Assembly: GCA_041558875.1 (NCBI GenBank)
Contig: JBFFEL010000004.1
Location: 6,980 to 70,979, forward strand
Length of the DNA: 64,000 bases
Source of the DNA: Anaerolineales bacterium
GTDB taxonomy: Bacteria > Chloroflexota > Anaerolineae > Anaerolineales > UBA4823
Direction: 5' to 3'
Shown here: piece by piece, positions 25,858 to 46,368 of the stretch
How the letters are laid out: every line of letters begins with the position of its first letter
Position numbering within the stretch: the first letter of the stretch is position 1
The notes under the pieces: generated by a model
Seen by the model: only the letters and a program-made list of their open reading frames with translations
Told to the model about the DNA's origin: nothing
Databases searched by the model: none
Translations under genes and position numbers: made by a program

Positions 25858-26871
25858 ATGAATATGACAGACCCAATAATAAAAATTTATAAAGGCTTAG
25901 AAGGCTATAAACAGCTGCTGATAATTCCACATAATGATCCTGATCCTGATGCCATCGCTACAGCGATAGGTTTGCGTTATTTAGTTACTGAAAAGCTTGG
26001 TAATACTGCTCAGATAGGTTATCGCGGCAACATTGGGCGTTCTAAGAACAAGGCACTTGTCCGATATTTAGACCACCCCCTTCACAAACTTGATCAGCAA
26101 GAGATGCGTCAAAATATACCCATAGCTTTGGTTGATACACAACCAGGTGCGGGGAATAATCCATTACCAGAAAACATCCCTGCCACAATTGTTATCGATC
26201 ATCATGAATGGCGAGAAATTTCATCCAAGGCACGGTTTTTTGACATTAGACCTGAAATTGGAGCATCAGCGACAATTTTGACAGAATACCTTCAGATGGC
26301 AGAATTGGATTTTTCTCCTGAACTTGCTACTGCTTTGTTCTATGGGATAAAAACCGACACGATGGGTCTGGGCCGTGGCGCATCCTCCGCTGATGCCGCC
26401 GCTTATTTCTTTTTACAGCCCAAAGTCGATGTTGAAACTTTAGTGCAAATAGAGCGTGCACAGGTTCCGATAACCTATTTCATGAGCCTCGACACGGCAA
26501 TACATGCAGCACGACTGTATGACAATGATCTGGTTATTTCAAATGTAAGAATTCTGAAATGCCCGGATTTAGGTGCAGAGATTGCCGATATACTGTTGCG
26601 TTTGCAGGGTGTAAAATGGTTCATATGTGTGGGGGTATATAAGGATGACTTGATTTTATCTCTCCGGTCCCGCAGCCGGAAAATTGGTGCTGGCAATCTA
26701 GCTAAACAAGTCATCGGGAATCAAGGTGTAGCAGGTGGACACGGGACGATAGCTGGTGGTCAAATCCGAATAAATAATCAAAACCCATACCAATTGTCAA
26801 ACCAAATAACCAAGATAGCCCTTCAGCATTTAAAGGGAGATTCATCTGTGGTTGGAATCCCATTGATTTAG
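25858..26871 (+). CDS. DHH/DHHA1 family phosphoesterase (NrnA-like), paralog 1
   Basis: 337 aa with IIPHNDPDPDAIATA, VIDHHEW and a GGHGTIAGG DHHA1 motif. It is a paralog of 45355..46368, which has the same length. Confidence 0.85.
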   Translation: MNMTDPIIKIYKGLEGYKQLLIIPHNDPDPDAIATAIGLRYLVTEKLGNTAQIGYRGNIGRSKNKALVRYLDHPLHKLDQQEMRQNIPIALVDTQPGAGNNPLPENIPATIVIDHHEWREISSKARFFDIRPEIGASATILTEYLQMAELDFSPELATALFYGIKTDTMGLGRGASSADAAAYFFLQPKVDVETLVQIERAQVPITYFMSLDTAIHAARLYDNDLVISNVRILKCPDLGAEIADILLRLQGVKWFICVGVYKDDLILSLRSRSRKIGAGNLAKQVIGNQGVAGGHGTIAGGQIRINNQNPYQLSNQITKIALQHLKGDSSVVGIPLI

Positions 26872-26881
26872 GAGGTGAAGT

Positions 26882-27562
26882 GTGCAAGCAGTATTAATTT
26901 CGCCTTTCGCAGACGAAGCCAACATCCTGCAAGTAATTTTGCAGCAAGCCGGATTCATGGTTCGAGCCACGCACAATTTTGATCAAGCCATTGAATCCTG
27001 GCCAAACAAACCTGCAGATCTTATTCTGATCGTATTGACTGGGGAACATTCTAAATCGTTAACTCAAGTAAAATTGTTACGGGCACATACCGTGGTGCCG
27101 ATTCTACTCATATCCGATTTGCTTCCTGATGACGAACATGTCAATTATCTCGAAGCCGGAGCTGACCTAGTTTTATTCCGGCCATACAGCGTTCGAGCCC
27201 TTTTAGCCCAAATACGCGCCATATTGCGCCGTAGTGCTGGTGTGCCTTTTTTTAGCCTACCTACTCTGACACAGAAAGATGTCATGCTGGATCCTACCGA
27301 CCGAACCGTTCGGGTTGGGGAGCAAGATCCCAAACGTTTGACCCAATTGGAGTTTCGTCTGCTCTACACATTGATGACCCATGTTGGTCAGATTATCCCG
27401 ACTGATAAGATAGTTGAACATGTTTGGGGATATTCAGGCGAAGGCAATCGGGAATTGGTGCGCGGTCTGGTGCAGAGGGTGCGTTCAAAAATCGAAGCTG
27501 AACCCCACAAACCTGAATACATTCTCACAGAAGTCGGTATCGGTTATTATTTCAGCCGCTAG
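26882..27562 (+). CDS. OmpR-family winged-helix regulator with degenerate (pseudo-)receiver domain, paralog 1
   Basis: 226 aa, GTG start with GGAGG. The C-terminal trans_reg_C pattern is LTQLEFRLLYTLM...VWGY...VRGLVQRVRSKIE...GIGYYF. In the receiver, SPFADE replaces the DD pocket, ADLILIVLTG has Val at the phospho-Asp position, and RPYS has Arg at the conserved Lys. Confidence 0.8.
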   Translation: MQAVLISPFADEANILQVILQQAGFMVRATHNFDQAIESWPNKPADLILIVLTGEHSKSLTQVKLLRAHTVVPILLISDLLPDDEHVNYLEAGADLVLFRPYSVRALLAQIRAILRRSAGVPFFSLPTLTQKDVMLDPTDRTVRVGEQDPKRLTQLEFRLLYTLMTHVGQIIPTDKIVEHVWGYSGEGNRELVRGLVQRVRSKIEAEPHKPEYILTEVGIGYYFSR

Positions 27563-27742
27563 GTAATCCCAATGTAGTTATTACTACGTAACAAATCTCG
27601 GGAGCTAGATTGTTTTCTACGAGGGGGAAAACAAGTATATAAAAATTCACACTGGGGGTCAATTTTTAATACAAATCCTCAATACTCATTAGACCAATTT
27701 TGAATACCAACTTAGTAAACTGCGGCCAGAAAGAATACGATC

Positions 27743-27931
27743 ATGATTACAGCAACCTGTCCGGAGTGTAAGCATTTGATTAATCTGATTTCATTGCCAG
27801 AAATCGGCAAACTATTTATGTGCGAGAGCTGCGACACAAAGCTCGAAGTAACCTGGCTGTTCCCAGTAATCTTGGACTATCAAGAGTATGAAAAACAGCT
27901 GGCCAGCGATGAGGACAAGAACCTGAAGTAA
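27743..27931 (+). CDS. LysW-like C4 zinc-ribbon small protein
   Basis: 62 aa with CPEC-x17-CESC, then KLEVTWLFPVILDY and the acidic tail QEYEKQLASDEDKNLK. Confidence 0.55.
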   Translation: MITATCPECKHLINLISLPEIGKLFMCESCDTKLEVTWLFPVILDYQEYEKQLASDEDKNLK

Positions 27932-27969
27932 TTGGCTCCATATCTTACACGGCTCACTTTATAGAAGGA

Positions 27970-29319
27970 TTGAAAGTGTTCAACAACAAAATATTCTGGA
28001 TTCTCGGTTATTCACTCGCAATCGTCCTGATTTTTGTGAGTATGGTTTTTGCCTCCTTCTCCCTGCTAAACCTATACCTTAGTTATGATGGACCTTCTGT
28101 ACAAACTCCGAATTCGAATTCGATAACAATCTTTGTCGCCCAAACCGTCGAAGCGGAATTGACCAAACAGGCAGCAGGGTCCACTCCGACTTATACAAAC
28201 ATCCCGGGATCGATTGTAACTGCAACCCCAACTGCTTCGGTTACACCAGAAATCATTACAACAACGAACACGGCTGTTCCTCCCAAGATGATAGTCCCCA
28301 CATTCACCCCGAATTCTGCTGCTTGCAATCAGGCTCAATTTATACGAGATTTATCTGTACAGGATAATTCACTCGTTCCACCAGGTGCTCCGTTCGTCAA
28401 AACCTGGCGCCTTAAAAATATTGGATACTGCACGTGGACAACCGGTTACATGCTGGTTTTTCATAGCGGAAATGCCATGGAGGCAAATCGGAGCATACCG
28501 TTACCGAGAAGCGTGGAGCCTAACCAGACTATCGATATATCAGTACCCATGAAATCGCCCCAAAAGGCGGGAACCTATCGAGGGGATTGGATGTTTAGCG
28601 ATGCTTCTGGTACCAGATTTGGCCTCGGTTCAAATGGAGATCAAACTTTCTGGGTGCAGATCCGAGTCAAGAATTTGGTTAATACGAACTTGGTCTACGA
28701 TTTTGCGGAAAACTCTTGTCATGCAGAGTGGAAAAGCAGTAATGGGATGTTGTCTTGCTTGGGGACTTCAAGCAGCAGTGATGGGTTCGTGATTTTATTG
28801 GATTCTCCACAATTAGAAAACCGCCAGGAAGATGAAATAACTCTCTGGACTCATCCCAATAACAGCAACCGTGGCTGGATAAGCGGGATGTATCCAGAAT
28901 TTATCATCCAACCCAACCAACACTTTAGTGCCTGGGTTGGCTGCCTGGTCGAAAGCAAGGGTTGTAACGTCATTTTCAGGCTGGACTATAAAAATCTCAC
29001 CAATGACAATATCCGCAATCTTGGTGCCTGGAACGAAATTTATGATGGAGAAGTGACCAAAATCGCTCTGGACCTCTCTCAACACGCTGGCAAACATGTT
29101 CGTTTCATACTCACAGTGGAGGTCAACGGTGGTGATCCAACCCGGGCAAACGCTTTTTGGTTTGTGCCAGGGATTGTTGCGGTCTTTTCCCCTACTGCTA
29201 CCCAAATTTTCCCTACAGCGACAATAAATCCAACTTCTGCACCTGCAGCCACTGAAACACCGACCGAAACACCCATACTTACAGAGATACCCCTTGGATC
29301 GGCTATTGGTGGAAATTAA
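27970..29319 (+). CDS. Membrane-anchored protein with NBR1-type Ig-like domain
   Basis: 449 aa with an N-terminal TM and a Thr/Pro-rich linker. FIRDLSVQDNSLVPPGAPFVKTWRLKNIGYCTWTTGYMLVF...GTYRGDWMF matches the NBR1-Ig-like pattern. The C-terminus is Thr/Pro-rich. Confidence 0.6.
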   Translation: MKVFNNKIFWILGYSLAIVLIFVSMVFASFSLLNLYLSYDGPSVQTPNSNSITIFVAQTVEAELTKQAAGSTPTYTNIPGSIVTATPTASVTPEIITTTNTAVPPKMIVPTFTPNSAACNQAQFIRDLSVQDNSLVPPGAPFVKTWRLKNIGYCTWTTGYMLVFHSGNAMEANRSIPLPRSVEPNQTIDISVPMKSPQKAGTYRGDWMFSDASGTRFGLGSNGDQTFWVQIRVKNLVNTNLVYDFAENSCHAEWKSSNGMLSCLGTSSSSDGFVILLDSPQLENRQEDEITLWTHPNNSNRGWISGMYPEFIIQPNQHFSAWVGCLVESKGCNVIFRLDYKNLTNDNIRNLGAWNEIYDGEVTKIALDLSQHAGKHVRFILTVEVNGGDPTRANAFWFVPGIVAVFSPTATQIFPTATINPTSAPAATETPTETPILTEIPLGSAIGGN

Positions 29320-29341
29320 TTTTAGATTGGAGGTGATTTTG

Positions 29342-29689
29342 ATGAAAACAAGATACAGATTTACCCTGATATTTATTGCATTTTTGCTTGCACTAGTAAT
29401 GTTCTTCGGAAACAGAAACGTTTCTGAGGCGCAGTCGGCCATATTTTATTTTCATTGGTCAGCTAATTGTGCAAAAGGTGAACCAGTGACGCTCAAACCA
29501 AAATACGACAAGGCATTTGATTGGACAGATCCATACACAGGAGCTGTAGAAAAAATTGTCCCTTATACGATTAGCTGTAAAACAGGTACTACTAGTGTTA
29601 GCAAATTGTGCAAAGGCTTTGTCTACACCAGGGCTTCAAGGACGGATCCCATGAATAATACACTCGTGTCTTGCTATGGAGTTCCGTAA
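29342..29689 (+). CDS. Small secreted Cys-containing protein, unknown function
   Basis: ATG at 29342 with GGAGGTG SD. The signal peptide is MKTRYRFTLIFIAFLLALVMFFG...SEAQS. The mature part has several Cys. Confidence 0.5.
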   Translation: MKTRYRFTLIFIAFLLALVMFFGNRNVSEAQSAIFYFHWSANCAKGEPVTLKPKYDKAFDWTDPYTGAVEKIVPYTISCKTGTTSVSKLCKGFVYTRASRTDPMNNTLVSCYGVP

Positions 29690-29787
29690 CCGATTTAATT
29701 CATAGGAGAAGAAAGAAATGAAAAAGAAACTGAAACAAGATATTTATTTTTCATTCTAGACCAAAAACACTATTACGGAGGTGAGAA

Positions 29788-30747
29788 ATGAAACATATTA
29801 AGAAAGCAACCCTAATTCTTGTGGCTCTAGCCATCTCCATAGGTTTGGTGTTAACCAATTCTCGACCAGTCTCTGCTGCTGTGGAAGAACCTCAAAAATG
29901 CACCCGGTGGCACACAGTTAATAAAGGCGAGTATCTGTCTATGATCGCTGAACAATACGAAACAAATTGGTATTCCCTGGTTGAGATCAATCAATTGACG
30001 AATCCAAGCCTCATTTACGTAGGCAACCGGTTGTGTATTTTCCACAGCGATTTCTCAACCAAGCCACTGGTAAATAATCCAATAAGTAGCAACAGTGCCA
30101 GAGTATTTGCTACCAGTGTTAAAGAAGATCAGACAGTGACCCTCCAGGGAAAATATTTAGTTGCGAATTCTCGTTACGACATTTATCTGGGTAAATATAA
30201 GACCGATCCAGCGATCAGAATTCCTGTTGGCTCAATCTCTACGGATAAAAATGGAGCCTTCCAAACGACAGTCACTATCCCTAAGAAGCTGTACGATGTA
30301 TTGAAGATTCGCGTCAGCCTAACCAATCAGCGCGGTGATACGAAATCAAACTGGTTCATCAATACTACCAGTTCAGGAAATGTCGGAGGTATTGGTTCTC
30401 CAGAGTTGAGCATAGCTGTCAAGTCTGTCAAGAAAGGCCAATGGGTAAAGATTGAAACGAATAACCTGCCAGCAAAAGTTTCCTTCAAGGTTTATATGAA
30501 GAGATCCGGAGCAAATGACAGAAAATGGGTTTTAGTTGGAACACTCCGTGATTCCAAGGGTGGCGAGGTTGTGGAATCCTTTGAAATTCCAGAATCAATA
30601 AAAGATCGATCAAAATTGGAGATTATGGCAGTAAACGATGCTCTAGATATGGATGCGGGAGCAAGGTTCGATAACATAACTACTAAGGCGCAAATAATCT
30701 CATCGATTAGACTCGATCAGGATACTGCAGTGATAGGTTTAAGGTGA
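29788..30747 (+). CDS. Secreted LysM-domain protein
   Basis: 319 aa with signal peptide and GGAGGTG SD. HTVNKGEYLSMIAEQYETNWYSLVEINQLTNPSLIYVGNRLCI is a LysM motif. The C-terminal region is beta-rich. Confidence 0.75.
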   Translation: MKHIKKATLILVALAISIGLVLTNSRPVSAAVEEPQKCTRWHTVNKGEYLSMIAEQYETNWYSLVEINQLTNPSLIYVGNRLCIFHSDFSTKPLVNNPISSNSARVFATSVKEDQTVTLQGKYLVANSRYDIYLGKYKTDPAIRIPVGSISTDKNGAFQTTVTIPKKLYDVLKIRVSLTNQRGDTKSNWFINTTSSGNVGGIGSPELSIAVKSVKKGQWVKIETNNLPAKVSFKVYMKRSGANDRKWVLVGTLRDSKGGEVVESFEIPESIKDRSKLEIMAVNDALDMDAGARFDNITTKAQIISSIRLDQDTAVIGLR

Positions 30748-30896
30748 GGCATCCCTCAGATGCTGACAGTTGATTTGCTTGAGCAAAAACACGTACTGGA
30801 AAAGAAATGTTGCCAGGAAAGTGATTGCTCAAGCACTATCTTTCAGCAATGCTTTAAAGATTTCACCACAAAACCCATTTTCCTAGGATATTCATC

Positions 30897-33287
30897 GTGC
30901 GCATCGTACTTGAACACATTTGGTCGGATTGGCGATTAAGTCTTGCTGTCACAATATTAATGGTAGCGGTTTTTGGTTTGTTGTGCGCTTGGTTCATGCC
31001 TCGAGGTCCAGTAACAACTTCACAAGCACTGGTTTCAATAGTGTCATCCTTATTCATTGGCATATTGGCTGGTTTTGTTATGGGAACCCGGTGGAGCATG
31101 TTGATCACGCCAGTGGCGTTTATATTTGTATTTGAACTCGCTCGAAATGGAATTAAAGGTCCCACGGTGGACAACATCATCCTCAGCTCCATGTATGGCG
31201 TCCTTGCATTTTCCACGGGTCGCTTATTTCATGGTGTGCTTGTCTTAGCACCGATGATATTAGGTGCCGTTTATGGGGCATGGATCGCATCCAGCGTTGG
31301 AAAAGGTCATATCGTGTCTGTGGGCACCTTCGGTTGGTCAATCACTGGTCTTAGCTCCTTGGCAATCATACTTGTTGTTTTTTTGGTTGCACAACCTGCG
31401 ACTACAAATCCAATAATCAATTCCGGTGGGGAGCCAATCTCTGGCAGTATTGCAGAATTGATCAGTGTCCCAATCGGTGGTCATGAACAGGTACTGATGA
31501 TTAGGGGAAGGAGTGTTGATAATCCGGTTCTTTTATATCTGGCTGGAGGACCTGGTGGTACAGACCTTGGTGCCATGCGTGCAGACGTCACTCTGGAACA
31601 GTATTTCATTGTTGTGACATGGGATCAACGCGGCACCGGTAAGTCTTATGCTGCTCTTGACCCGGTTGAAACGCTGACTTACGAACAAATGGTGTCCGAC
31701 ACGATCGAGGTGACAAATTACCTCCGTGACCGCTTCAATGTAAACAAGATTTACCTTGTAGGTAATTCTTGGGGCTCTATCCTCGGTATACTTGCCGTTC
31801 AACGTCAGCCTGAACTCTTCCACGCTTATGTTGGTACAGGTCAAATGGTCAGCCCAAGGGAAACCGATATCATGTTCTATGAAGATAACCTGAAGTGGGC
31901 TGAACAAACGCACAACGGAAACCTAGTTGATGAGCTGCAACAAATTGGTCTTCCTCCATACGAGAACCTCAAAAATTATGAAACAGCACTTTCCCACGAA
32001 CTCGCCTGGAACCCCTATTCCGGACTCGATACAAGCAAGGAAATGCTATTCAACTTGTTTGTACCCGAAAACTCACTCATGGATCGGATCAACGGGATGC
32101 GAGGTTTGCTCGATACTTTCTCCATCCTTTATCCACAACTACAGGAAATTGACTTTCGGAAGGATGTCCAAAGCATGGACATCCCCATTTATATTGTGAT
32201 TGGCAAGCACGAGGCTCGCGGCCGGGCTGTCTTAGCCAAAGAATGGTTCGAAATGCTTTCAGCTCCGTCAAAAGAGATGATCATTTTCGAACATTCAGGT
32301 CATCGTCCAATATTTGAGGAACCAGCGGAGTTCGCTGCTGTGATGACTCGTATCTTGGAGGACAATAATATCCAATTCTCGAATAATCCAACCCATCCGG
32401 TGTGTTTCGATACTTTTCTTGCTCCTATTGCATTTATGCCAGACAGTGAACGAATTTTGGTTCGCGCTGAATCAGGTGTTCAGATCTTTAATCTAGCAAC
32501 GATGGAGGAAGAATTGTTCCTTGAATCGCCAACAAAACTGAAAAGACCAACTGCGGTTCTGTCATTGAAAGGTGATATGTTAGCCTGGGTACTTGAAGAT
32601 AATTCCATCCAAGTAATCCGGTTATCAGATCAGAGCGTAATTTACACCACACACATCCATTCTGATCCAATCACAAAACTAAGATTTTCTCCGGATGGGT
32701 TGAAACTATACTCAGCCTCACATGATGGTTGGGTGAAGGAATTGAACATTGATGGACAAATAGTAAGCGAATTTCAGCCTTATGGTGGAGAGGTACTCGG
32801 ACTAGGTATTTCCGCAGATGGAGAAACCATTGCTACAATACCTTTCGATGGACCTGTAAAGTTGTGGGATACAGCAAACTATCAAATGCTGACAGATTTG
32901 GGGGGATCGGGTGGATATGATACCTCAGATGTGGCTTTTTCCAGCAACGGTCAATTTATCGCCGCAGATCTAGCAACCGGCCTGTCTGCCTGGGATATCA
33001 GTGATCATTCATTACTTTGGAATGGCATCAACAGCAAGGCATTCGCATTTTCGCCACAAGAAAACCTCTTGGCTTATTCAGATATTAGTAAGAATCATGA
33101 CATTATTCTTAGGTCTCTAGAAGACAAACAAATACTAAATACATTGATCGGCCATCAAGGTCCAGTTTGGGAGCTGATATTCTCACCTGATAGTCAATTG
33201 CTGGCATCCACGGATGGAAATGAATTGCGCATCTGGCGCGTGGATGGTGGCGAGCTCTTGTACATTGGAAAAAGCAGCTGTCCGTAA
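30897..33287 (+). CDS. Membrane-anchored alpha/beta hydrolase (proline iminopeptidase-like) fused to WD40 repeats
   Basis: 796 aa with about 5 N-terminal TM helices. The hydrolase core has LYLAGGPGG, nucleophile elbow GNSWGS and a late FEHSGH. The C-terminus has WD40-like repeats (e.g. GHQGPVWELIFSPDSQLLASTDGNELRIWRV). Confidence 0.75.
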   Translation: MRIVLEHIWSDWRLSLAVTILMVAVFGLLCAWFMPRGPVTTSQALVSIVSSLFIGILAGFVMGTRWSMLITPVAFIFVFELARNGIKGPTVDNIILSSMYGVLAFSTGRLFHGVLVLAPMILGAVYGAWIASSVGKGHIVSVGTFGWSITGLSSLAIILVVFLVAQPATTNPIINSGGEPISGSIAELISVPIGGHEQVLMIRGRSVDNPVLLYLAGGPGGTDLGAMRADVTLEQYFIVVTWDQRGTGKSYAALDPVETLTYEQMVSDTIEVTNYLRDRFNVNKIYLVGNSWGSILGILAVQRQPELFHAYVGTGQMVSPRETDIMFYEDNLKWAEQTHNGNLVDELQQIGLPPYENLKNYETALSHELAWNPYSGLDTSKEMLFNLFVPENSLMDRINGMRGLLDTFSILYPQLQEIDFRKDVQSMDIPIYIVIGKHEARGRAVLAKEWFEMLSAPSKEMIIFEHSGHRPIFEEPAEFAAVMTRILEDNNIQFSNNPTHPVCFDTFLAPIAFMPDSERILVRAESGVQIFNLATMEEELFLESPTKLKRPTAVLSLKGDMLAWVLEDNSIQVIRLSDQSVIYTTHIHSDPITKLRFSPDGLKLYSASHDGWVKELNIDGQIVSEFQPYGGEVLGLGISADGETIATIPFDGPVKLWDTANYQMLTDLGGSGGYDTSDVAFSSNGQFIAADLATGLSAWDISDHSLLWNGINSKAFAFSPQENLLAYSDISKNHDIILRSLEDKQILNTLIGHQGPVWELIFSPDSQLLASTDGNELRIWRVDGGELLYIGKSSCP

Positions 33288-33346
33288 ACAAACCCACGGG
33301 GAGATATTAATTGATTTGAGGAAACATTTTTAAAAGGAAACCTTTT

Positions 33347-38203: not shown

Positions 38204-39183
38204 TGAGTTGTATGATCCGTTCAATTGTGTTTACCGAAGCGGGTGAGACGCAACCCATAATTGTGGAAAAAATCCCGGAGATATTGAAAAATAAGATAGA
38301 TTTCTTCTGGGTAGACGTTGTTGCTGAACCAGATGAAAACTGTAAAAACCTGTTTCAAGGTGTTTTTAATTTCCACTCACTAGCAATTGATGATGCTCTC
38401 CAAGAAACGCATGTTCCAAAAGTTGATGGTTGGAGCACATACCTCTATATGGTATTGCTCACTGCAAGAAAAGCATCTCAAGATTCCTTTGAGATTCTCA
38501 CACCAGAGTTGGATGTATTCTTAGGCTCAAATTATTTAGTGACATACCACAAAGAGGCAATTGCCAGTGTAGATGCGATTTGGGCTCTTTGCCTGCGAGA
38601 TCAAAGATACATGTCAAAAGGACCAGGATTTATTCTCTATCAAATTTCAGATGAGATTGTTAGCAACACAATGTCAGTAATTGAGGATGCAGAAAATCTA
38701 TTAGATCAGATCGAAGATGTGATCTTTACCAATCCACAACCAGCGATCTTAGAACAAATCTTTTCAGTCAAACGTACATTGCTAGGATTACGAAGTTTCC
38801 TGCTTCTCCAAAGGGAGATTTTTAATAAGCTGGCACGTGGTGATTTTGAACTAATCCCAGACCATGACAGAGTTTACTTCCGAGATGCATACGACCATAT
38901 GGTCCGGGTGCAAGAAATCAATGAAAGTTTACGTGATCTTATCAATAGTGTATTAGAAATTTATCTTTCTGTGGTAAACAATCGGATGAATGAGATCATG
39001 AAGTTGCTAACCATTATTGCTACGATTTTTATCCCACTTTCTTTCTTCACGGGAATTTATGGAATGAATTTTACCTTTATGCCGGAGCTGCAATGGCGAT
39101 GGGGTTATTTCTTTTTTCTAGGTTTTATTGGGCTGATTCTCATTGGTATGTTGATCTTTTTTAGGCGAAAACAATGGATATGA
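38203..39183 (+). CDS. corA: CorA-family magnesium/cobalt transporter
   Basis: 326 aa with two C-terminal TM helices and a YGMNF (GMN) motif. An alternative ATG lies at 38212. Confidence 0.85.
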   Translation: MSCMIRSIVFTEAGETQPIIVEKIPEILKNKIDFFWVDVVAEPDENCKNLFQGVFNFHSLAIDDALQETHVPKVDGWSTYLYMVLLTARKASQDSFEILTPELDVFLGSNYLVTYHKEAIASVDAIWALCLRDQRYMSKGPGFILYQISDEIVSNTMSVIEDAENLLDQIEDVIFTNPQPAILEQIFSVKRTLLGLRSFLLLQREIFNKLARGDFELIPDHDRVYFRDAYDHMVRVQEINESLRDLINSVLEIYLSVVNNRMNEIMKLLTIIATIFIPLSFFTGIYGMNFTFMPELQWRWGYFFFLGFIGLILIGMLIFFRRKQWI

Positions 39184-39256: not shown

Positions 39257-40429
39257 ATGGTAGAAATTTTTGAAAAGAATACAAATATAAGTTAGCCAGA
39301 GATCTTTTGTTTTACATTGTCGTACTTTTAATAGTTTCTGGATTGACATGTACCTACTACCTCCTAATGCGGTCCTTGGTAATTGCAGCGCTTTTGGCAT
39401 ACCTACTTTATCCAGGAGTAACTTGGATATCTGATCATACACATCTAAACAAAGATATGTAGTTCCTGTGGTCTATATCGTATTCGTGGTTGTTTTGGTT
39501 GTTATCATTATCTAACTTTCACCAATAATTTTTCAGCAGGCAAAGATACTCAGCTTTAGGCTGCAAACTATTCCTAATCAAATAGGCAAATTCGAGACAA
39601 ATGTTGAGATTCTGTTTGGTTTTGAGTTACCCATATTAGCTTTTTGGGATGACATTCAATTTGGCGCATACCAACTGCTAAAACCCGAGAGGGTCTTTCA
39701 AATAATTAGGATTACAACCACGAACATAGTTTGGTTGGTCGTTATATTCGCCACAAGCTTCTATTTACTTAGAGATTGGGAACATTTGTGTGTGGGATTG
39801 GTTTATAAGATTAGCTCCGGCGGAATATGAACCTGATATCCTTCACCTTTACCAGGAGATTAAATCTGTATGGCAGATATTTCTTCGAGGGCAACTCCTG
39901 ATTATGTTCCTGGTAGGTTTACTTTCAGGGTTGGTTGCAGCTGTGATTGGACTTCCAGGCGCTTCCATATTAGGGATTCTTGCGGGAACCCTGGCACTAA
40001 TCCCAACACATGGGCCGGCGATAGCAACTATGATTAACGCTATCGTTGCCTGAACACAGGTATCTACCCACCTATCTTGATTTTTCCAATGGAGTGATAG
40101 TTTTTTTGTCAATCTCTATTTTTCAGTTGGTTCAGATAGTTGAAGGAGTTTGGCTTTCAACACAAATCATGGAGAGAAAGCTGCAATTACATCCAGGTCT
40201 TGTACTGGTTGCTATTATTAATACTTTGATAAGTGTAAGTGCGATGATTGCTTTAATGATCACACCACTGATTGGTTCCTTAGAGATAGTTCTTCGATAT
40301 GTTATTAGAAGAAAACGGGCTGGATTAGCACCTTGGTCAAAGGAAGAATCACTTCAATGGGTTGATGATGATACCTTACCTGATATTCCAGTTATTACCG
40401 AAATGTTTTTTTACACGAAAACGACTTAG
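39257..40429 (+). pseudogene. Decayed AI-2E (PerM/YhhT) family transporter gene with several frameshifts and stops
   Basis: The pieces are in different frames. They read MVEIFEKNTNIS*, LARDLLFYIVVLL...AALLAYLLYPGVTW...*, VPVVYIVFVVVLVVIII*, LSPIIFQQAK...FYLLRDWEHL, WDWFIRLAPAEYEP...LIPTHGPAIATMINAIVA*, and ...IFQLVQIVEGVWLSTQIMERKLQLHPGLVLVAI.... Together they trace one AI-2E-like protein. Confidence 0.55.
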
Positions 40430-40686: not shown

Positions 40687-40998
40687 TTATCTTTCATCAT
40701 GATCAATAAAATGATTTTTCTTGTCACGACCTAATAATTTTGTTCCATCCCAAAAAAATGCAAAAGCGATAAAAATCAAAATAACAAATGTTCGCATTGT
40801 TTGTGATATTTGGTAATATGGTCTAATAAGATTTTGTTCAGCATACAATAAGGTGAAACCAAGTAAGAATATTCCAAAAAAATATATCAATATACTTTGC
40901 CATTTGCCTTGTTTTAAATTTCCCATTCCAGCAAATAGAATGAAAAATAGATTTGTAAGAAAAGAATCTTTTTTCAACTGAATCCCTCTTAGTTTCAA
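40687..40998 (-). CDS. Small membrane protein (about 3 TM), unknown function
   Basis: 103 aa. Its start overlaps the stop of the RimK-like gene by 4 nt, which suggests co-translation. Confidence 0.45.
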   Translation of the reverse strand: MKLRGIQLKKDSFLTNLFFILFAGMGNLKQGKWQSILIYFFGIFLLGFTLLYAEQNLIRPYYQISQTMRTFVILIFIAFAFFWDGTKLLGRDKKNHFIDHDER

Positions 40999-41924
40999 AA
41001 GGAGTGCAAATACATTTTTTCTTTTGAAGGAATCCCTTCTAACCGAACTTGTACATACTGATAAATTTCCATCGGCACGTTAATTCCGGTTGCAAATTCA
41101 AACCCCTCAAATCCTGGGGCGCAATTGATTTCACAAACTTTATAATTATCGCCATCAAACAGCAGGTCCACACCGGCAATATCCAATCCTAACGCCCTGG
41201 CCGATTCGACAGCCAACCACTCAACAGCTGGAACTAACTCGAAATTCGATACCTTCCCCCCTCTTGAGTAATTTGCTTTGTACATACCTTCTCTTGCGAC
41301 TCTCAACATGCCGCCAATCGCCCTCCCTCCCACAACAATCACGCGAATGTCTTTACCTCGACTTGATGAAATGAATTCTTGAATAATCACATTTGCAGTT
41401 GATCCTTTGGATATCTCAATCAGCTCACCCAAATCCTCCATTTGTCCTCGATTCTCGCATAGGAAAATCCCTCTTCCACGAGAACCGGACACAAGTTTCA
41501 CAATCACGGGATAAGTAAATTCCGCATCCACTTTCTCTACATTAAAAGGAAATTTTGCCAGCATTGTTTTTGGAATAGGAATATTATTCCCAGCCAGACA
41601 TTGAATAGTTGCCAGTTTATCTCTGCCAACTTCAATACTCCGGCTGGGATTCAAGGTGAATATTCCCCCTTGCTCAAGATACCGTAATGCAGATAATGAG
41701 AAGTAGGTTGCGCCTGATCCTAGTCTAGGAATCAGGCAGTCAACATTATTACTGGTCTGTCCTTCATACGGCCTGTCATGGCTTGTATCGCTTGGTACGA
41801 TTAAATCAAAATCCTCTATTGCAAGAAAACTGAAATCAATCCCTGCATCAACTGCTTCTTCTCGAAATCGACGATTTTCGTAACTTTCAATATTTTTGTC
41901 TTTATCTAAGAGCCAAATTTTCAT
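40995..41924 (-). CDS. RimK-family ATP-grasp alpha-L-glutamate ligase-like protein
   Basis: 309 aa, collinear by eye with E. coli RimK. Shared segments are MKIWLL, IPRLGSGATYFSLSALRYLE, RDKLATIQCL, PVIVKLVSGSRGRGIF, IIQEFI...GKDIRVIVVG, ANYSRGG and AGVDLL...VCEINCAPGFEG. Confidence 0.85.
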   Translation of the reverse strand: MKIWLLDKDKNIESYENRRFREEAVDAGIDFSFLAIEDFDLIVPSDTSHDRPYEGQTSNNVDCLIPRLGSGATYFSLSALRYLEQGGIFTLNPSRSIEVGRDKLATIQCLAGNNIPIPKTMLAKFPFNVEKVDAEFTYPVIVKLVSGSRGRGIFLCENRGQMEDLGELIEISKGSTANVIIQEFISSSRGKDIRVIVVGGRAIGGMLRVAREGMYKANYSRGGKVSNFELVPAVEWLAVESARALGLDIAGVDLLFDGDNYKVCEINCAPGFEGFEFATGINVPMEIYQYVQVRLEGIPSKEKMYLHSF

Positions 41925-41932
41925 TTCCGGGT

Positions 41933-42400
41933 CTAAGAAACATTCAGAATGTGTACTGGATAAACTCCCCCTGGTGCCCTGATCAGCACATCATCACCAA
42001 CTTTGTGACCGATCAGGGCACTCCCTAAAGGAGATGCAAAAGAAATCAAACCCCGAACAGGCGCGGCTTCTACCGGCCCAACAATTGTATAGCTCACCGG
42101 TTCCTCACCATTTTCAGAAATCATAACCTTTGAACCGATTTCGATCACTCCACCATTTTCTTGATTCTCAATGATGATCGGGTTTGAAAGTAAGATCTCC
42201 AAATCTTGAATGCGGCCCTCAATGAATGCCTGTTGTTCTTTTGCCATGGCAAATTCGGGATCCGTATCACCATCGTTCTCATTACCACCATTTGATTCCC
42301 TCAGCAGCGCGGCAATTTCCTGGCGTTTCACATTCCGTAAGTATTCAAGCTCACCAAGTAATTTTTCATAACCGGATGAAGTTAAATATGTTGGTGGCAT
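41933..42400 (-). CDS. GreA-like transcript-cleavage-factor homolog, paralog 2
   Basis: 155 aa with LTSSGYEKLLGELEYLRNVKRQEIAALL, ...PEFAMAKEQQAFIEGRIQDLEILLSN and C-terminal LISFASPLGSALIGHKVGDDVLIRAPGG. The gene ends 8 nt upstream of the RimK-like gene. Confidence 0.8.
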   Translation of the reverse strand: MPPTYLTSSGYEKLLGELEYLRNVKRQEIAALLRESNGGNENDGDTDPEFAMAKEQQAFIEGRIQDLEILLSNPIIIENQENGGVIEIGSKVMISENGEEPVSYTIVGPVEAAPVRGLISFASPLGSALIGHKVGDDVLIRAPGGVYPVHILNVS

Positions 42401-42484
42401 TTCATCAACTCCTTAACGCTAAATTTCCTGATATTTGTTAAAAACAAGGGAGATACTGACCATTAAATCTTGTTTTACGAAAGG

Positions 42485-42892
42485 TTAGTTTAAGTATTCA
42501 TCCAGATGATCTTCAAAGGTATCTTCGTCACCAAAATAGTAATCAAAGCCCCCATCGTATGGCCAGTCTAGCTCGAGAGGGATCAAGGAGACAATTTCCA
42601 ATTCCGCATCACAACCAGAACACAACACTTTACTACCAACCTTCATTTGCGATGATCCAATCTGAACCATATCCTTACATAACGGGCACCTACCATTACT
42701 CGCTTTTTTTACTCGTTCTCTGCCATTTGAATCAAAATGTTCATCGTAATATATCCAATCCAATTCAATCGGATTGGTGTTGACAACTTCTAGAAGTGCT
42801 TCACAAGATGGACAGATAGCTCGTTCAAGAAACTTAACTTTTTTTCCTAGTTCTATACTCTCTTCGCATATCGGACATTGCGCTCTTATCAT
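42485..42892 (-). CDS. Tandem double LysW-like zinc-ribbon protein
   Basis: 135 aa. Module 1 is CPIC-x17-CPSC EALLEVVNTNPIELDWIYYDEH. Module 2 is CPLC-x18-CSGC DAELEIVSLIPLELDWPYDGGFDYYFGDEDTFEDHLDEYLN. Confidence 0.6.
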   Translation of the reverse strand: MIRAQCPICEESIELGKKVKFLERAICPSCEALLEVVNTNPIELDWIYYDEHFDSNGRERVKKASNGRCPLCKDMVQIGSSQMKVGSKVLCSGCDAELEIVSLIPLELDWPYDGGFDYYFGDEDTFEDHLDEYLN

Positions 42893-42950
42893 CGCTCATC
42901 CTTTCATGGATATCTTTCTCCGAAGGAAACAAACAATCGAAGTATGGGCT

Positions 42951-43178
42951 TTATATGCCTTTCCAGTCTTTATCCCAGAATTCGAATTCATCGAACGCAT
43001 ATCCACTTTCGTCTGGGACATATATTAGATCCAACACAATAGGGTCAAGGTTGATAATCTCTACCTGTTCATCACAGATTGAACAAAGTATATATTGGCC
43101 AATCTTTGGGTTTTCCCCAATAGATATTTTCTCTCCACAGGAAGGACATCGCGACATTCGTTTCTTAATAGATTTCAT
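42951..43178 (-). CDS. LysW-like C4 zinc-ribbon small protein
   Basis: 75 aa with CPSC-x17-CSIC DEQVEIINLDPIVLDLIYVPDESGYAFDEFEFWDKDWKGI. Confidence 0.6.
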   Translation of the reverse strand: MKSIKKRMSRCPSCGEKISIGENPKIGQYILCSICDEQVEIINLDPIVLDLIYVPDESGYAFDEFEFWDKDWKGI

Positions 43179-43210
43179 AGTTAATACTCCTACGAGTAAT
43201 ACGACTGGGG

Positions 43211-43402
43211 CTACTCGATTAAAAGCTTAATGGATTGATCAGGATTAACCGAATTATCCTCAACCAAATCTAGAGTGAGTGGATATAACCAAGTTATTTC
43301 GAAATTGTTGTGGCAATGGGGGCAGGAGATTCGACTATTAATGTATGGTGCTTCGTCTGTGATTTCAAACTCTTTCAGGCAAGAGGGGCAGTTTGTTACC
43401 AT
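43211..43402 (-). CDS. LysW-like C4 zinc-ribbon small protein ending in Glu
   Basis: 63 aa with CPSC-x17-CPHC HNNFEITWLYPLTLDLVEDNSVNPDQSIKLLIE. It is the only member with a C-terminal Glu, as in LysW and ribosomal protein S6. Confidence 0.6.
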   Translation of the reverse strand: MVTNCPSCLKEFEITDEAPYINSRISCPHCHNNFEITWLYPLTLDLVEDNSVNPDQSIKLLIE

Positions 43403-43551
43403 AAAACTCGCGCATTCAACACATTTAGTTTCATAGAATATAGCAACAACCTGTTTTATTTTCGTTGAAAAAATATCCCATTAATGTATAAAATCTCGTT
43501 TCCACATATTAATATTTATACCGATTACACAAACCAATTCAACCCAAATAC

Positions 43552-43582
43552 AAAATAAAAAAAGCCTCTCCGTCAGGAGAGG
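43552..43582 (-). terminator. Rho-independent terminator after the regulator gene 43606..44301
   Basis: The minus-strand RNA is CCUCUCC-UGAC-GGAGAGG followed by CUUUUUUUAUUUUG, 23 nt after the stop. Confidence 0.7.
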
Positions 43583-43605
43583 GTGGGGAAGATAAATTTA
43601 TTAGA

Positions 43606-44301
43606 TTATTCGCTACGATTGAAATAATACCCAATTCCTGATTCCGTGAGAATGTATCTTGGGTTTCTTGGTTCAGGTTCAACTTTCGATCGCAATCGCT
43701 GAACAAGTCCACGAACCAGATCCCGATTACCTTCACCAGAATAACCCCATACATGCTCTACGATCTGCTCCGTAGGCAAGATCTGTCCAACATTGGTCAT
43801 CAATGTGTATAGCAAGCGAAATTCTAGTTGAGTCAAATGTTTTTCCGGATGATTCCCCACTTTCACCGTACGCATTGATGGATCTAACACAACATCATGT
43901 TGGGATAACGTGGGCAAACTGAAAAATGGAATACCAGCGCTTCTTCTTAATAAAGATTTTATTTGTGCATGAAGGAAGCGAATTCCATATGGCCGTTGGA
44001 TTACCAGGTCCGCTCCAGCCTCCAACAATTCAACCTGTATTCCTTCATTTATAGGATCACTAATTATGCAGATTGGAATGACTGTGTGCAATCGAAAGTC
44101 TTCAATATACTTTATTGCTTTGGATATATCTTCTGGAAGTGTGATAAGTACAAAATCGGCTGGTTTTTCAGGCCAAGCATCAATTGCTTGCTCGAGGTTG
44201 TGAACAGTCCTTACATAAAATCCTGCTCTTTGCAGGAGAAGACTCAGGACAGAGGCTTCTTCGATATGAGGGGAGAATAACAATGCTTGCATATTGATCA
44301 T
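43606..44301 (-). CDS. OmpR-family winged-helix regulator with degenerate (pseudo-)receiver domain, paralog 2
   Basis: 231 aa, collinear with 26882..27562. Shared segments are SAG[VI]PFFSLPTL[TS]Q, LTQLEFRLLYTLMT, VEHVWGYSGEGNR.LVRGLVQR.RSK and GIGYYF. The receiver is degenerate: FSPHIEE, ADFVLITLP (Thr at the phospho-Asp position) and QRPYG. Confidence 0.8.
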   Translation of the reverse strand: MINMQALLFSPHIEEASVLSLLLQRAGFYVRTVHNLEQAIDAWPEKPADFVLITLPEDISKAIKYIEDFRLHTVIPICIISDPINEGIQVELLEAGADLVIQRPYGIRFLHAQIKSLLRRSAGIPFFSLPTLSQHDVVLDPSMRTVKVGNHPEKHLTQLEFRLLYTLMTNVGQILPTEQIVEHVWGYSGEGNRDLVRGLVQRLRSKVEPEPRNPRYILTESGIGYYFNRSE

Positions 44302-44394
44302 CCTTTAGAATTTTAGCTACGAAATGGCTCAACATTCTTTCAGCAACATTGTCTGCGATGAAACTAGATTATTTCATTTCACCTTATCATCATG

Positions 44395-44867
44395 TCATGG
44401 AAAGGACAGAGAAATTGCACCTTGAAGATATGCCTGCAGGACTCGTTTTTGGATATCTAGGGTGATTTTAAATCTTTGCTCAGGTAGCAATTTCACCATC
44501 ACTCTCCTCTTGATTGCCCAACGATTGATAATGCCTGATTCAATCACTTCAGGATTCCCAAGTAGATGGGGATTTAATCCAGGATACTCTGCAAATTTCT
44601 CAGCTATCTGAACCAAAACTTTATCATGACAATCCAGATCTTTACCAAAATGAATATTTACTTAAGCTTCGGCTCGAGTCCAATCCTTAATCTGATTTGC
44701 ATTGACTATAACATCACCATTTGGTATTGTAATGAAACTCTCATATATCGCACAAATAGGTTGCTCCATATGTTATCCTCTCTACCTCCCCAGTTAGATT
44801 ATTGAATTGAATGCTATCTCCAATTACAAATCGGTTCTTTAAAAATAGAAAGAAACCACTGATGAAA
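44395..44867 (-). pseudogene. Relic of an MscS-like channel gene (5'-truncated, frameshifted, in-frame stop)
   Basis: There are three pieces. The first is FISGFFLFLKNRFVIGDSIQFNNLTGEVERITYG.... The second, in another frame, is ...SFITIPNGDVIVNANQIKDWTRAEA*VNIHFGKDLDCHDKVLVQIAEKF.... The third is ORF 44395..44616, ending ...LQAYLQGAISLSFP. There are no N-terminal TM helices. The frame is closed by a stop next to the palindromic element at 44871. Confidence 0.55.
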
Positions 44868-44870
44868 TTA

Positions 44871-45037
44871 TTAATTACCCCAAGTTACCACCTACCCTGC
44901 GGATGTCTTTCTGAGGAGCGAAGCAACGAAGACTCTCAGTCCTGAGTGAAGAATCAGCTGAACTAAGGAGAGATTCTTCGCTCGTACCACGATCAGAATG
45001 ACGTGATGTCCGGTTGGTAGCAACTTAAGTTAATTAA
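44871..45037. repeat. Imperfect long palindrome (about 165 nt) with AT-rich termini, MITE/REP-like element
   Basis: The ends TTAATTACCCCAAGTTACCACCTACCCTGCGGATGTC and GACGTGATGTCCGGTTGGTAGCAACTTAAGTTAATTAA are imperfect inverted repeats. The interior arms GTCTTTCTGAGGAGCGAAGCAACGAAGACTCTC and GAGATTCTTCGCTCGTACCACGATCAGAATGAC are also mutually complementary in part. Only one copy is seen in this window. Confidence 0.5.
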
Positions 45038-45354
45038 TGTCTGAGCAACCAAGCGAGAGGCATGACCTGTTATTCATACACAAGCCAATAACGGTATCAA
45101 GTTCACACAAAACGAACTAAGAATCATTTGTAATACAACTCAAACTTGTGATAAGTATATACTCCAGGCTAAGATTTGAAGGAAGGTAACTGTCTGTGGG
45201 ATTTTTTCCTGGTGAGTCTTTACTTTCGAGTCAATGAACTGATAAATCCTTTGGAGTGCAAATTGAACTGGTATCGAAGAAGTGTCGCCAAGGTCACAAT
45301 TAACAAACCGATTACAAGATTAGGAGTCTAATCAGAAATTGTCAAACTCCATAA

Positions 45355-46368
45355 TCAAATCATTTGCTTAAAATGGACTTCAGATTTTCCTTTCAAATGG
45401 ATCAAAGCCGTTTTCTCCAATTCTACTGCCAGTTGTTCTGGATCATCCTCCTTTCCTAATCTAACATGCCCGGCCGCCATATTTCCATGACCACCGGCTG
45501 TACCTTTATGACCAATGATTTTGGAAATCAACATGCCAGCACCGATTTTTTTGTTCCGAGATCGCATGGAAAGGATCAATTCATCGACAAAAACCCCCAT
45601 ACAGAGTACCCACTGGATACCCCTCAACCTCATGAAGAAATCAGCTATCTCGGCGCAAAGGTCTGGATAAGGAAGATTGCCTAAATAAGCAATAACGACA
45701 TCATCATCGAAAATCCGACCAGCATGAATCGCATTGTCGATACTCTGGAAATAAGTTATAGGCACTTGAGCCTGCTCGATTTGTACTAAAGCATGGACAT
45801 CTATTAATGGTTGCAGGTAGAAGTATGCCTCCACATCAGCTGGACTGGCATGACGGCTGAGACCCATAGTATCCGTTTTGATGCCGAAGAAAAGGGCTGT
45901 AGCTAGCTGAGGAGTTGGATTGATCCCGGCTTCTAGCAAATACTCAGTCAGGATAGTGGAAGTGGCTCCTAATTCAGGACGAATATCCACAAAATCACCT
46001 GATTTAGCAGCACTTTGCGAGATGTGATGATCTATTACGATATCAGCCATCCGGTCAGCAGGTAGAGAGTTGTTTCCAGTGCTAGGCTGAGTATCGACTA
46101 AGGCGATCTTAGATTCTGTATGCCAGTCGGAGGGTTGAATAAGACGGAGCGGTTTATCCAAATACTGCACCAGCGCCTTGTTCTCAGCACGCCCGATATG
46201 GCCTTTGTAAATAATTTTTGCATCTACATGAAAGACTATATTGAGGAGATTTTTCAATCCAACCGCCGAGCCAATTGCATCTGGATCAGGATCGTTGTGG
46301 GGAATGATCAGGATGTTAGTTTGGTCAGCCAATACCTTGGCAAGTGCATCAAGATGCTTATCAGACAT
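45355..46368 (-). CDS. DHH/DHHA1 family phosphoesterase (NrnA-like), paralog 2
   Basis: 337 aa with IIPHNDPDPDAIGSA, VIDHHIS and GGHGNMAAG. It is collinear with 25858..26871. Confidence 0.85.
   Translation of the reverse strand: MSDKHLDALAKVLADQTNILIIPHNDPDPDAIGSAVGLKNLLNIVFHVDAKIIYKGHIGRAENKALVQYLDKPLRLIQPSDWHTESKIALVDTQPSTGNNSLPADRMADIVIDHHISQSAAKSGDFVDIRPELGATSTILTEYLLEAGINPTPQLATALFFGIKTDTMGLSRHASPADVEAYFYLQPLIDVHALVQIEQAQVPITYFQSIDNAIHAGRIFDDDVVIAYLGNLPYPDLCAEIADFFMRLRGIQWVLCMGVFVDELILSMRSRNKKIGAGMLISKIIGHKGTAGGHGNMAAGHVRLGKEDDPEQLAVELEKTALIHLKGKSEVHFKQMI

Follow-up and report, generated by a model that had tools for sequence, protein, structure and literature searches.

In the LysW/LysX carrier system of Thermus and Sulfolobus, LysW ends in EDWGE and its terminal glutamate carries the substrate; the roles described for LysW so far are, to our knowledge, limited to that of a carrier in the biosynthesis of amino acids and secondary metabolites. 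Among transcription regulators of the OmpR/PhoB type, atypical orphan members with degenerate receiver domains include HP1043, ChxR, NblR and GlnR. Here, relatives of both were studied in a stretch of 64,000 nucleotides (nt) from an Anaerolineales bacterium (assembly GCA_041558875.1, contig JBFFEL010000004.1, positions 6,980–70,979 of the forward strand), the whole of which is referred to as the window. Between positions 25858 and 46368, the window holds two copies of a gene module whose core is an orphan pseudo-receiver OmpR/PhoB regulator, followed by at least one separately transcribed mini-protein of the LysW fold and often joined by genes for a GreA-like factor and a ligase of the ATP-grasp type. 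Paralogous DHH/DHHA1 phosphoesterases and transport genes (MscS, CorA and AI-2E) are further linked to it in this lineage. Our reading, put forward as one explanation and judged on balance to be probable, is that of two ancient paralogous Chloroflexota modules, for which we propose phosphorylation-independent control with the LysW-like proteins as partners of the regulator or substrates of the ligases.

The left arm, on the forward strand, comprises a stand-alone DHH/DHHA1 phosphoesterase (DHH_L, 25858–26871), an OmpR/PhoB-type winged-helix regulator with a pseudo-receiver (REG_L, 26882–27562), a LysW-fold zinc-ribbon mini-protein of 62 amino acids (LysW_L, 27743–27931; Pfam Zn_ribbon_LysW, 27 bits) and, further downstream, a GreA-like factor (Gre_L, 34868–35392). 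Their counterparts on the reverse strand are DHH_R (45355–46368), the pseudo-receiver OmpR-type regulator REG_R (43606–44301, 231 residues), LysW_R1 (43211–43402) and Gre_R (41933–42400). Domains were assigned with Pfam, which returned DHH/DHHA1, Response_reg plus Trans_reg_C, and GreA_GreB_N/C on both arms; equivalog scores were taken from NCBIfam, and protein pairs were compared with BLASTP. The two DHH proteins are 55% identical over 321 residues (E=1e-127), the regulators 64% (E=7e-110) and the GreA-like factors 50% (E=3e-44). A sequence-only reading had described such paralogous pairs in opposite orientation, and these alignments bear it out; all the open reading frames (ORFs) that it named were recovered at the positions given for them. 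Its observation that both DHH proteins have 337 residues is likewise accurate, but the equal length is a trait of the family, most homologues having 333–339 residues. Nucleotide comparison of the arms returned conserved coding segments only, namely the regulator cores (27332–27554 versus 43620–43842, 76%) and the DHH cores (26315–26744 versus 45485–45914, 65%), with no match in intergenic DNA. Since the DNA match is confined to coding cores, the pairs appear to be old paralogues maintained through selection at the protein level and not a recent repeat.

Other proposed correspondences between the arms fared unevenly. An MscS-like gene is indeed present on each arm as a remnant detectable by tblastn, at about 37560–37996 on the forward strand and at 44398–45268 on the reverse strand. 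Each arm also has an ATP-grasp gene, of the Ddl type on the left (35674–36918) and of the RimK type on the right (40995–41924), but the two were rejected as a paralogue pair because their best local BLASTP match has E=0.44. The zinc ribbons exist and can be refined to the LysW fold; the earlier listing was incomplete, as there are six such ORFs and those at 35456–35647 and 36951–37184 had been omitted. Finally, the central fragments at 39790–40429, which had been taken for MscS, both carry the Pfam domain AI-2E_transport and are remnants of a transporter of that family.

The age of the duplication was assessed from database matches and from neighbour-joining trees, that of the regulators comprising 88 sequences. 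Over 100 database proteins match DHH_L more closely than its window partner DHH_R does, the best of them at 98% identity, followed by 91% (CP070720.1, locus L001), 77% and 75%. DHH_R has an orthologue clade of its own at 59–97% identity, beyond which identity stands at about 55%, the level of the left-type proteins. REG_L and REG_R fall into separate clades, each of which holds orthologues from three other genomes: bin156 (CP070785.1, about 95% identical to the window at the DNA level, with the left-type locus L010 and the right-type locus L026), bin26 (CP070764.1, both module copies in locus L012) and JBJYXV01 (loci L013 and L028). The DHH tree agrees with this topology: its right-type clade splits off before the left-type clade parts from L016-type and other lineages, and the two form exclusive sisters in 0/50 bootstraps. 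This agreement fits an old co-duplication of a DHH–regulator block. A recent duplication within the genome was rejected because each copy has many closer orthologues elsewhere. The paired genes are thus, as judged from their sequences, true and ancient paralogues, and the paralogy is older than the separation of several lineages of Anaerolineales. The suggestion of an ancient duplication followed by divergence therefore stands, each copy being closer to its orthologues in other Chloroflexota than to its partner.

Conservation of the module was examined by scanning 185,579 species genomes with the regulator alignment, which yielded 475 relatives. Eighty regulator-anchored loci were kept, to which the following neighbour counts refer; all 80 carry a Chloroflexota label, mostly Anaerolineae or Anaerolineales. 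A LysW-like ORF lies within 600 nt of the regulator in 66/80 loci and within 1.5 kb in 69/80, a Ddl-type ligase within 4 kb in 19/80, a Gre paralogue within 4 kb in 17/80, and a DHH gene within 3 kb in 5/80. In an unbiased neighbour census, the families that recurred were those of the regulator, LysW, ligase, Gre and N_BRCA1_IG. Typical layouts are a regulator–Gre–ligase series with a LysW-like ORF on the opposite strand, and the order regulator–LysW–LysW–ligase–LysW–Gre–LysW. A conserved synteny is seen in one large clade (L074–L088; for example, L080 11235–12839 and L085 5804–7834): there, the regulator–LysW pair is accompanied by housekeeping genes, namely those of DnaG, RecN, NAD kinase and a primary sigma-70 factor, and by the gene of a large CHASE4-GAF-PAS histidine kinase.

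Three further loci were reached from ligase homologues on long contigs, and there too the ligase proved to stand among the genes of the module. In L094, a ligase and a small ORF face Gre, a double LysW, LysW and the regulator on the opposite strand, and L096 reads regulator, LysW, LysW, ligase, AI-2E, CBS, MscS and CorA. L095 (6231–10212) has LysW and the regulator, then a ligase, a lysine-2,3-aminomutase-like radical-SAM enzyme (LAM_C), a second ATP-grasp gene and a histone-deacetylase-family gene; these extra genes may extend the module into metabolism. The L095 contig is labelled Zixibacteria. Transport genes (MscS, CorA, AI-2E, CBS, TrkA_C) stand beside the module in L008, L012, L044, L096 and the window.

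That the co-location has no functional meaning, with DHH proteins as housekeeping nanoRNases, the Gre proteins as ordinary GreA and their adjacency due to chance, is very unlikely. The adjacency of regulator and LysW, the recurrence of Gre and ligase, and a shared DNA motif (see below) are far beyond chance, and a DHH gene adjoins the regulator in three separate regulator clades, with a spacing of 10–57 nt in the left-type clade and L016. What fits chance is the low count of DHH genes near regulators and, in Herpetosiphonaceae, a DHH homologue that follows arginine-biosynthesis genes with no regulator nearby. Chance is accordingly excluded for the core and possible for DHH alone. The homologue in question, found in L005/L006, is 57% identical to DHH_L and stands directly after argG-argJ-argH-argC-argB.

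An anti-phage defence role was rejected, as the defence models of PADLOC gave 0 matches for 10 module proteins. Database names for the module proteins are limited to "hypothetical", "Ddl family", "DHH family" and "nanoRNase/pAp phosphatase", and none of these proteins fits a curated NCBIfam equivalog, a rimK subfamily model being the only one passed. Judged from these names, the module is apparently undescribed. The inverted duplication itself is ordinary genome evolution; what matters more widely is that the pairing of a non-phosphorylatable regulator with LysW-fold mini-proteins is conserved, and apparently unannotated, in hundreds of Chloroflexota genomes.

The closest solved relative of the regulators is KdpE, which aligns over the full length with E=8e-30, and Trans_reg_C was found in the two window regulators with E=1.5e-19 and 4.2e-21. 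The phospho-acceptor D52 of KdpE aligns with threonine in REG_R and valine in REG_L, and its conserved lysine with arginine. Among 88 family members, none has the acceptor aspartate (valine in 28, alanine in 28, threonine in 23, serine in seven, asparagine in one and cysteine in one), and the lysine site is arginine in 77. The receiver domain of the module regulators, judged from these residues, is predicted to be incapable of phosphorylation. REG_L and REG_R are 82% identical in the DNA-binding part and 55% in the pseudo-receiver and linker. As in the atypical orphan OmpR/PhoB regulators, a receiver-like domain is joined to a winged helix, the acceptor aspartate is missing, and no histidine kinase gene was found within the window's module. 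Unlike those regulators, the present family is restricted to Chloroflexota in this survey (475 loci), has an invariant RPY in place of KPF and is neighboured by a LysW-like gene. NCBIfam equivalog scores of the module regulators all lie far below the cutoffs.

The spacers between regulator and LysW genes, in both clades and in more distant loci, share a dyad with the consensus GTATAAAWWTTNNTAY, which is palindromic in L042; some 30 nt further on, there is a TTAATAC/TTTATAC element. In the window, an operator- or promoter-like copy with two mismatches to the consensus lies 91 nt upstream of LysW_L (27637–27652, forward strand), and exact copies are found 118 nt upstream of Gre_L (34735–34750, forward strand) and about 105 nt upstream of LysW_R1 (43506–43521, reverse strand). 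No known RNA element was detected in the long regulator-to-LysW spacers with Rfam at gathering thresholds. The DHH_L stop codon lies 10 nt before the REG_L start, so that the two genes are probably co-transcribed, and a terminator-like hairpin (43565–43582) follows REG_R.

The six LysW-like ORFs of the window contain seven domains. In addition to LysW_L, the left arm has an ORF of 63 residues with a basic tail between Gre_L and the ligase (35456–35647), which was detected with a hidden Markov model built from the other window copies, and one of 77 residues with an acidic/aromatic tail ending in ...DYDYDYD (36951–37184). The right arm, on the reverse strand, carries LysW_R1 (63 residues), an ORF of 75 residues (42951–43178) and one of 135 residues with two LysW domains (42485–42892). 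The last four of these, from the 77-residue ORF on, match Pfam Zn_ribbon_LysW. All five LysW-like ORFs submitted to Pfam gave PF21344, three of which reached or exceeded the gathering score, and TIGR01206 gave 40 bits on a LysW-like protein against a cutoff of 53. A profile of 16 LysW-like domains matched the PDB entries 3wwl (E=1.2e-11) and 5k2m (E=3.8e-11) across the entire globular domain, in which four cysteines are invariant. The ORFs are conserved in position: LysW_L has orthologues in the same place in L001, L003 and L010–L014; identical or orthologous copies of the ORF at 35456–35647 occur in L010, L026 and L012; orthologues of that at 36951–37184 follow the ligase in L010, L012 and L026; and those of the right arm (42485–43402) have orthologues in L026, L012, L028 and L090. 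Across 137 LysW-like ORFs, the tails vary greatly, being acidic/aromatic (...DYDYDYD, ...DDDDF), ending in ...DEE, basic or neutral. A subtype of about 103 residues, whose tail is long and basic and whose extreme C-terminus (...DW) is conserved, is encoded upstream of the regulator on the opposite strand in L023, L029, L031, L032, L034, L036 and L038; the loci with this subtype carry regulator–Gre–ligase operons.

The module thus resembles the LysW/LysX system in the whole zinc-ribbon globular domain, an acidic tail and the ATP-grasp genes alongside. These features would also fit true amino-group carriers loaded by the flanking ATP-grasp ligases, for instance in a compatible-solute or beta-amino acid pathway, with the regulator merely controlling the pathway. 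The aminomutase-like enzyme, second ATP-grasp gene and deacetylase-family gene beside the regulator–LysW–ligase set of L095 point the same way, as do the osmotic and ion transport genes that recur nearby. We nevertheless regard a carrier pathway as improbable. No genes of the LysZ, LysY, LysJ or LysK type were seen in the window or the loci examined, and the nearby M20 hydrolase (22626–23804) belongs to TIGR01891, the aminoacylase/CpsA type, with LysK not among its matches, so that a canonical LysW pathway was rejected. The neighbour census likewise gave no set of kinase, reductase and aminotransferase genes, the ATP-grasp ligases being all of the pathway that was seen. Among the 137 tails, no EDWGE-like motif and no conserved terminal acceptor residue, glutamate included, was found. 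Most loci have the regulator–LysW pair without any ligase, and where a ligase recurs it is of the Ddl type and not of the LysX type. The module further departs from the known carrier system in having several mini-protein paralogues per locus, with very different tails, and a transcription regulator as the constant partner.

The left-arm ligase (414 residues; Pfam Dala_Dala_lig_C) reached 171.9 bits with the best NCBIfam Ddl subfamily, for which the cutoff is 243, and its match to DdlB in the PDB is split into two stretches. Homologues 64–82% identical occur across many Chloroflexota assemblies. By sequence, the gene is assigned to a Ddl-like branch of ATP-grasp enzymes and not to recognised Ddl. 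The right-arm enzyme, a RimK-type alpha-L-glutamate ligase of 309 residues (Pfam RimK and Rimk_N), passed the cutoff of the NCBIfam family rimK_fam, TIGR00768 (226.8 bits versus 143.4), and scored 169 bits with the RimK equivalog NF007764, for which the cutoff is 331. Against the PDB, it matched the S6-glutamate ligase 5zct with E=6e-47 and LysX with E=1e-16 to 1e-25. The equivalent of E. coli R189 is kept within 'DIRVIVVG'; in RimK, LysX/ArgX and TTL, this residue makes contact with the last residue at the C-terminus of acidic polypeptides (PMC10375531). The enzyme thus recalls S6 glutamylation by RimK in its family score, its match to the E. coli protein, the kept arginine and the acidic-tailed small proteins encoded immediately upstream. 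It differs in lying within a regulator–LysW–Gre operon and not near rpsF, and in being confined to this lineage: RimK was found in 0/80 other loci, and is complete in the window, represented by its start in L090 and by an N-terminal remnant in bin156. A metagenome scan for RimK relatives, meant to reveal linkage to LysW-like genes, gave no matches.

Both GreA-like factors have the full-length architecture of GreA and Gfh1, with the N- and C-terminal domains; in the PDB, GreA (1grj) was matched with E=5e-22 and Gfh1 with E=2e-18. The two factors differ from these in scoring below the GreA equivalog cutoff (130 and 119 bits versus 145), in their altered tip loops and in being linked to a regulator module, as opposed to stand-alone housekeeping genes. 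The acidic tip loop of the coiled coil is five residues shorter in Gre_L and two residues longer in Gre_R, and most module-linked Gre proteins keep a D..E tip (compare D41/E44 of E. coli).

The DHH proteins resemble stand-alone DHH/DHHA1 enzymes, such as the GdpP catalytic domain, TmPDE and NrnA/CnpB, in having both domains, about 337 residues and the characteristic motifs. The Pfam score was above the cutoff for DHH and just below it for DHHA1; the DHH-domain motifs align with those of GdpP, and GGH/AGGHG and the DHHA1-type LSLRSR can be recognised by eye in the translation. The best PDB match of DHH_R is the GdpP catalytic domain (E=1e-8), and the proteins of known structure that come closest, phosphodiesterases with c-di-AMP or pApA as substrate, are distant at E of about 1e-8. 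The NrnA equivalog NF053633 gave 24–27 bits versus a cutoff of 350. Unlike the known enzymes, DHH_L is probably co-operonic with a regulator and DHH_R, of the right-type subfamily, with an MscS channel gene.

For the mechanism, we propose that both regulators, given their nearly identical DNA-binding domains, probably bind the shared dyad (TGTATAAA-N5-6-TATACA-like) before the LysW_L, Gre_L and LysW_R1 units, which would make both arms one regulon. As there is no phospho-acceptor, the input would probably be the binding of a protein or ligand to the diverged pseudo-receivers, for which the adjacent LysW-like proteins are the best partner candidates. By analogy with RimK on S6 or LysX on LysW, the acidic LysW-like tails would probably be substrates of the neighbouring ATP-grasp ligases, which would add amino acids to the C-terminus. 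The Gre paralogues would act in the secondary channel of RNA polymerase, and the co-operonic DHH enzymes may turn over a nucleotide signal or nanoRNA. Since channel and transporter genes recur beside the module, its physiological theme may be ion or osmotic homeostasis. A bolder version, which we hold to be rather unlikely as it stands, would make the acidic-tailed LysW-fold mini-proteins signalling proteins and not carriers: their tails would be extended or remodelled by dedicated ATP-grasp ligases (Ddl-type and, here, also RimK-type), and the proteins so altered would bind the pseudo-receiver, or RNA polymerase together with Gre, as a switch replacing phosphorylation that is widespread in Anaerolineae and tied through DHH, MscS and CorA to nucleotide-signal and ion homeostasis. 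If true, a regulatory LysW fold, or the tailing of a regulator's partner by ATP-grasp enzymes, would extend the fields of LysW and of atypical response regulators, and would offer a testable entry into gene regulation in Anaerolineae, which are abundant but little studied.

Several points weigh against the proposal of paralogous modules under phosphorylation-independent control. We infer regulator–operator binding, the regulator–LysW partnership and tail ligation from gene adjacency and analogy. The dyad has 12 matches in the window versus 3.0 expected from window shuffles, which ignore the AT-richness of the region. Across 1.5 Mb of loci, 26 of its 47 matches fall into the 300 nt that precede LysW (20), Gre (four) or regulator (two) genes, the enrichment at LysW being partly circular, as the motif was derived from regulator-to-LysW spacers, and the Gre and regulator matches being independent. 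Alternatively, the dyad might serve a sigma factor as a promoter element or be bound by another regulator, and OmpR-family proteins normally bind direct repeats, so that a dyad is unusual. The lack of a conserved terminal acceptor residue in the 137 tails counts against their ligation as well as against the carrier pathway. Many loci, such as those of the dnaG/rpoD clade, have no ATP-grasp gene within 10 kb, and the core pair of regulator and LysW can therefore not depend on ligation. The DHH linkage is patchy at five of the 80 loci, and this family may be a housekeeping nanoRNase. Bootstrap values for the exact clade sets are modest (25/50 for the right-type and 17/50 for the left-type clade, neighbour-joining).

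The history of the arrangement was traced in relatives. The bin156 genome is collinear with the window over 16862–37654 and 41560–45380. It is without window segment 37655–41559, which holds the rest of MscS_L, CorA, the AI-2E remnants, a 103-residue ORF and most of RimK. At this junction, two alignment blocks overlap by 14 nt, and the loss is most likely a deletion in bin156, which retains the N-terminal parts of MscS_L and RimK. Past window position 45380, just beyond the DHH_R stop codon, bin156 runs into window positions 11044 to 5727 in inverted orientation, which indicates an inversion of about 34 kb between the genomes that parted DHH_R from the rest of the right arm. Its breakpoints, window versus CP070785.1, are 11044/11045 and 45380/45381; no inverted repeats were found at 11044 and 45380. 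An assembly artefact in the window was rejected because L090, an independent assembly, shows the same order of Mrp, PSP1, PIG-L, DHH_R, a 0.9-kb gap, REG_R, the LysW-like ORFs, Gre_R and the start of RimK. DHH_R is followed by MscS in L008 and L009 as well, and because of this shared order the arrangement of the window is probably ancestral and that of bin156 derived.

In bin26, the modules stand in tandem on one strand, in the order REG_R, LysW, LysW, Gre_R, 103-residue ORF, DHH_L, REG_L, LysW, LysM, Gre_L, LysW, ligase and LysW, then further on MscS and CorA. In JBJYXV01, the right-type and left-type modules are on different contigs. The supposition that the duplication was inverted therefore found no sign in relatives: the copies are in tandem in one genome, on separate contigs in a second, and in a third an inversion breaks the right arm. 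A convergent pairing is seen again in L008 (4757–17748), where a second "supercluster" has two convergent regulators of distant clades around LysW-like ORFs, two Gre genes and a ligase; such pairing of modules thus recurs with different members. This supercluster also contains CBS, DUF389, MscS, a CorA fragment and a right-type DHH gene. The inverted bracket of the window arose as a side effect of lineage-specific rearrangements and is not a functional palindrome.

These comparisons bear on the account given by the sequence-only reading, in which a complete system of DHH, regulator, zinc ribbon, Gre, ATP-grasp and MscS genes underwent a single inverted duplication in situ and was later split by unrelated insertions. 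The same kinds of genes do occur on both arms in roughly mirrored order, the DHH and regulator trees agree as co-duplication predicts, and the palindromic element is a true recent insertion. We consider this account quite improbable all the same, because the ATP-grasp genes are of different families and RimK is confined to this lineage, in addition to the tandem order in bin26 and the inversion in bin156. Moreover, duplication of a whole system does not hold, as the duplicated unit is the regulator with a LysW-like gene, at times with Gre, and DHH genes are rarely near. Neither was the right arm split by its MscS gene, DHH_R–MscS being the conserved order in L008 and L009. The idea that envelope genes later split the left arm is correct in part. 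Other clades have a contiguous regulator–LysW–Gre–ligase series, so that some insertion did happen, but it is old, and N_BRCA1_IG is a conserved neighbour of LysW_L: it lies 21–39 nt after LysW_L in most left-clade loci and 27–183 nt after it in L014 and L011, it is replaced by LysM in L012, and it occurs within 5 kb of the regulator in 13/80 loci from several clades.

A further possibility is that the modules were not duplicated in this lineage and that related modules were joined by horizontal transfer into an AT-rich, rearrangement-prone island. The guanine + cytosine (GC) content is 0.38–0.45 across window positions 24000–46500, which cover the modules, versus about 0.50 in the flanks. A 3.1-kb cassette of DUF6544', DHH_L, REG_L and LysW_L (24938–28073) is 93% identical in CP070720.1 (L001 9080–12185), where it is the only shared part and lies in an otherwise unrelated context beside the ribosomal protein genes L3-L4-L23-L2-S19, which suggests relocation or recombination of the cassette. 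An insertion sequence (rve) adjoins DHH_R in L009, the window has an insert like a miniature inverted-repeat transposable element (MITE), and the L008 supercluster brings together regulators of two distant clades in a similar convergent arrangement. To this possibility we attach only a small probability. At least four related genomes carry members of both the left- and the right-type clade, and the trees agree, which one old duplication with vertical descent explains equally well. The module span also has a lower GC content than its flanks in 13/14 other loci, and so low GC appears to be a property of the module, not a sign of recent transfer. With the inversion, the deletion, the MITE insertion and the cassette relocation, the window and its close relatives form a natural rearrangement series that helps to define which genes belong together.

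The six "envelope" genes between LysW_L and Gre_L (27970–34651, forward strand) were identified with Pfam and by synteny in L003/L004/L010/L013. They encode an N_BRCA1_IG membrane protein (27970–29319), a conserved ORF of 131 residues (29294–29689), a LysM protein (29788–30747), a transmembrane–alpha/beta-hydrolase–WD40 protein (30897–33287), a SIMPL protein (33347–34063) and a lipoprotein-like ORF (34172–34651). Just upstream of DHH_L lies a truncated DUF6544/DUF6920 gene (24622–25098, reverse strand), and the same family is found upstream of DHH in L001, L002 and L010.

The MscS_L pseudogene (37398–38203, forward strand) is split into two ORFs by a frameshift and was recognised by tblastn with the MscS proteins of L009 and L008. 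The MscS gene of the right arm (44398–45268) is likewise frameshifted and is interrupted by a MITE-like insert at about 44870–45038 (152–169 nt), which has terminal inverted repeats of 27 nt with TTAATTAA-like ends and folds into one long hairpin (-53 kcal/mol). No further copies were found in the window or the compared loci. The insert (44878–45029) is missing from bin156 and likewise from L090; the palindromic element that the sequence-only reading saw splitting this arm is thus a true and recent insertion.

Between the arms, an intact CorA Mg/Co transporter gene (38203–39183, forward strand; Pfam CorA; TIGR00383, 265 bits versus a cutoff of 200.75) is followed by the pseudogene of an AI-2E (PerM-type) transporter in two frameshifted fragments (39790–40429, forward strand), of which an intact homologue is found in the same module neighbourhood of L096 (6489–7616). 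The 103-residue membrane ORF (40687–40998, reverse strand) has phmmer matches in L012 and L028, where it directly follows Gre_R.

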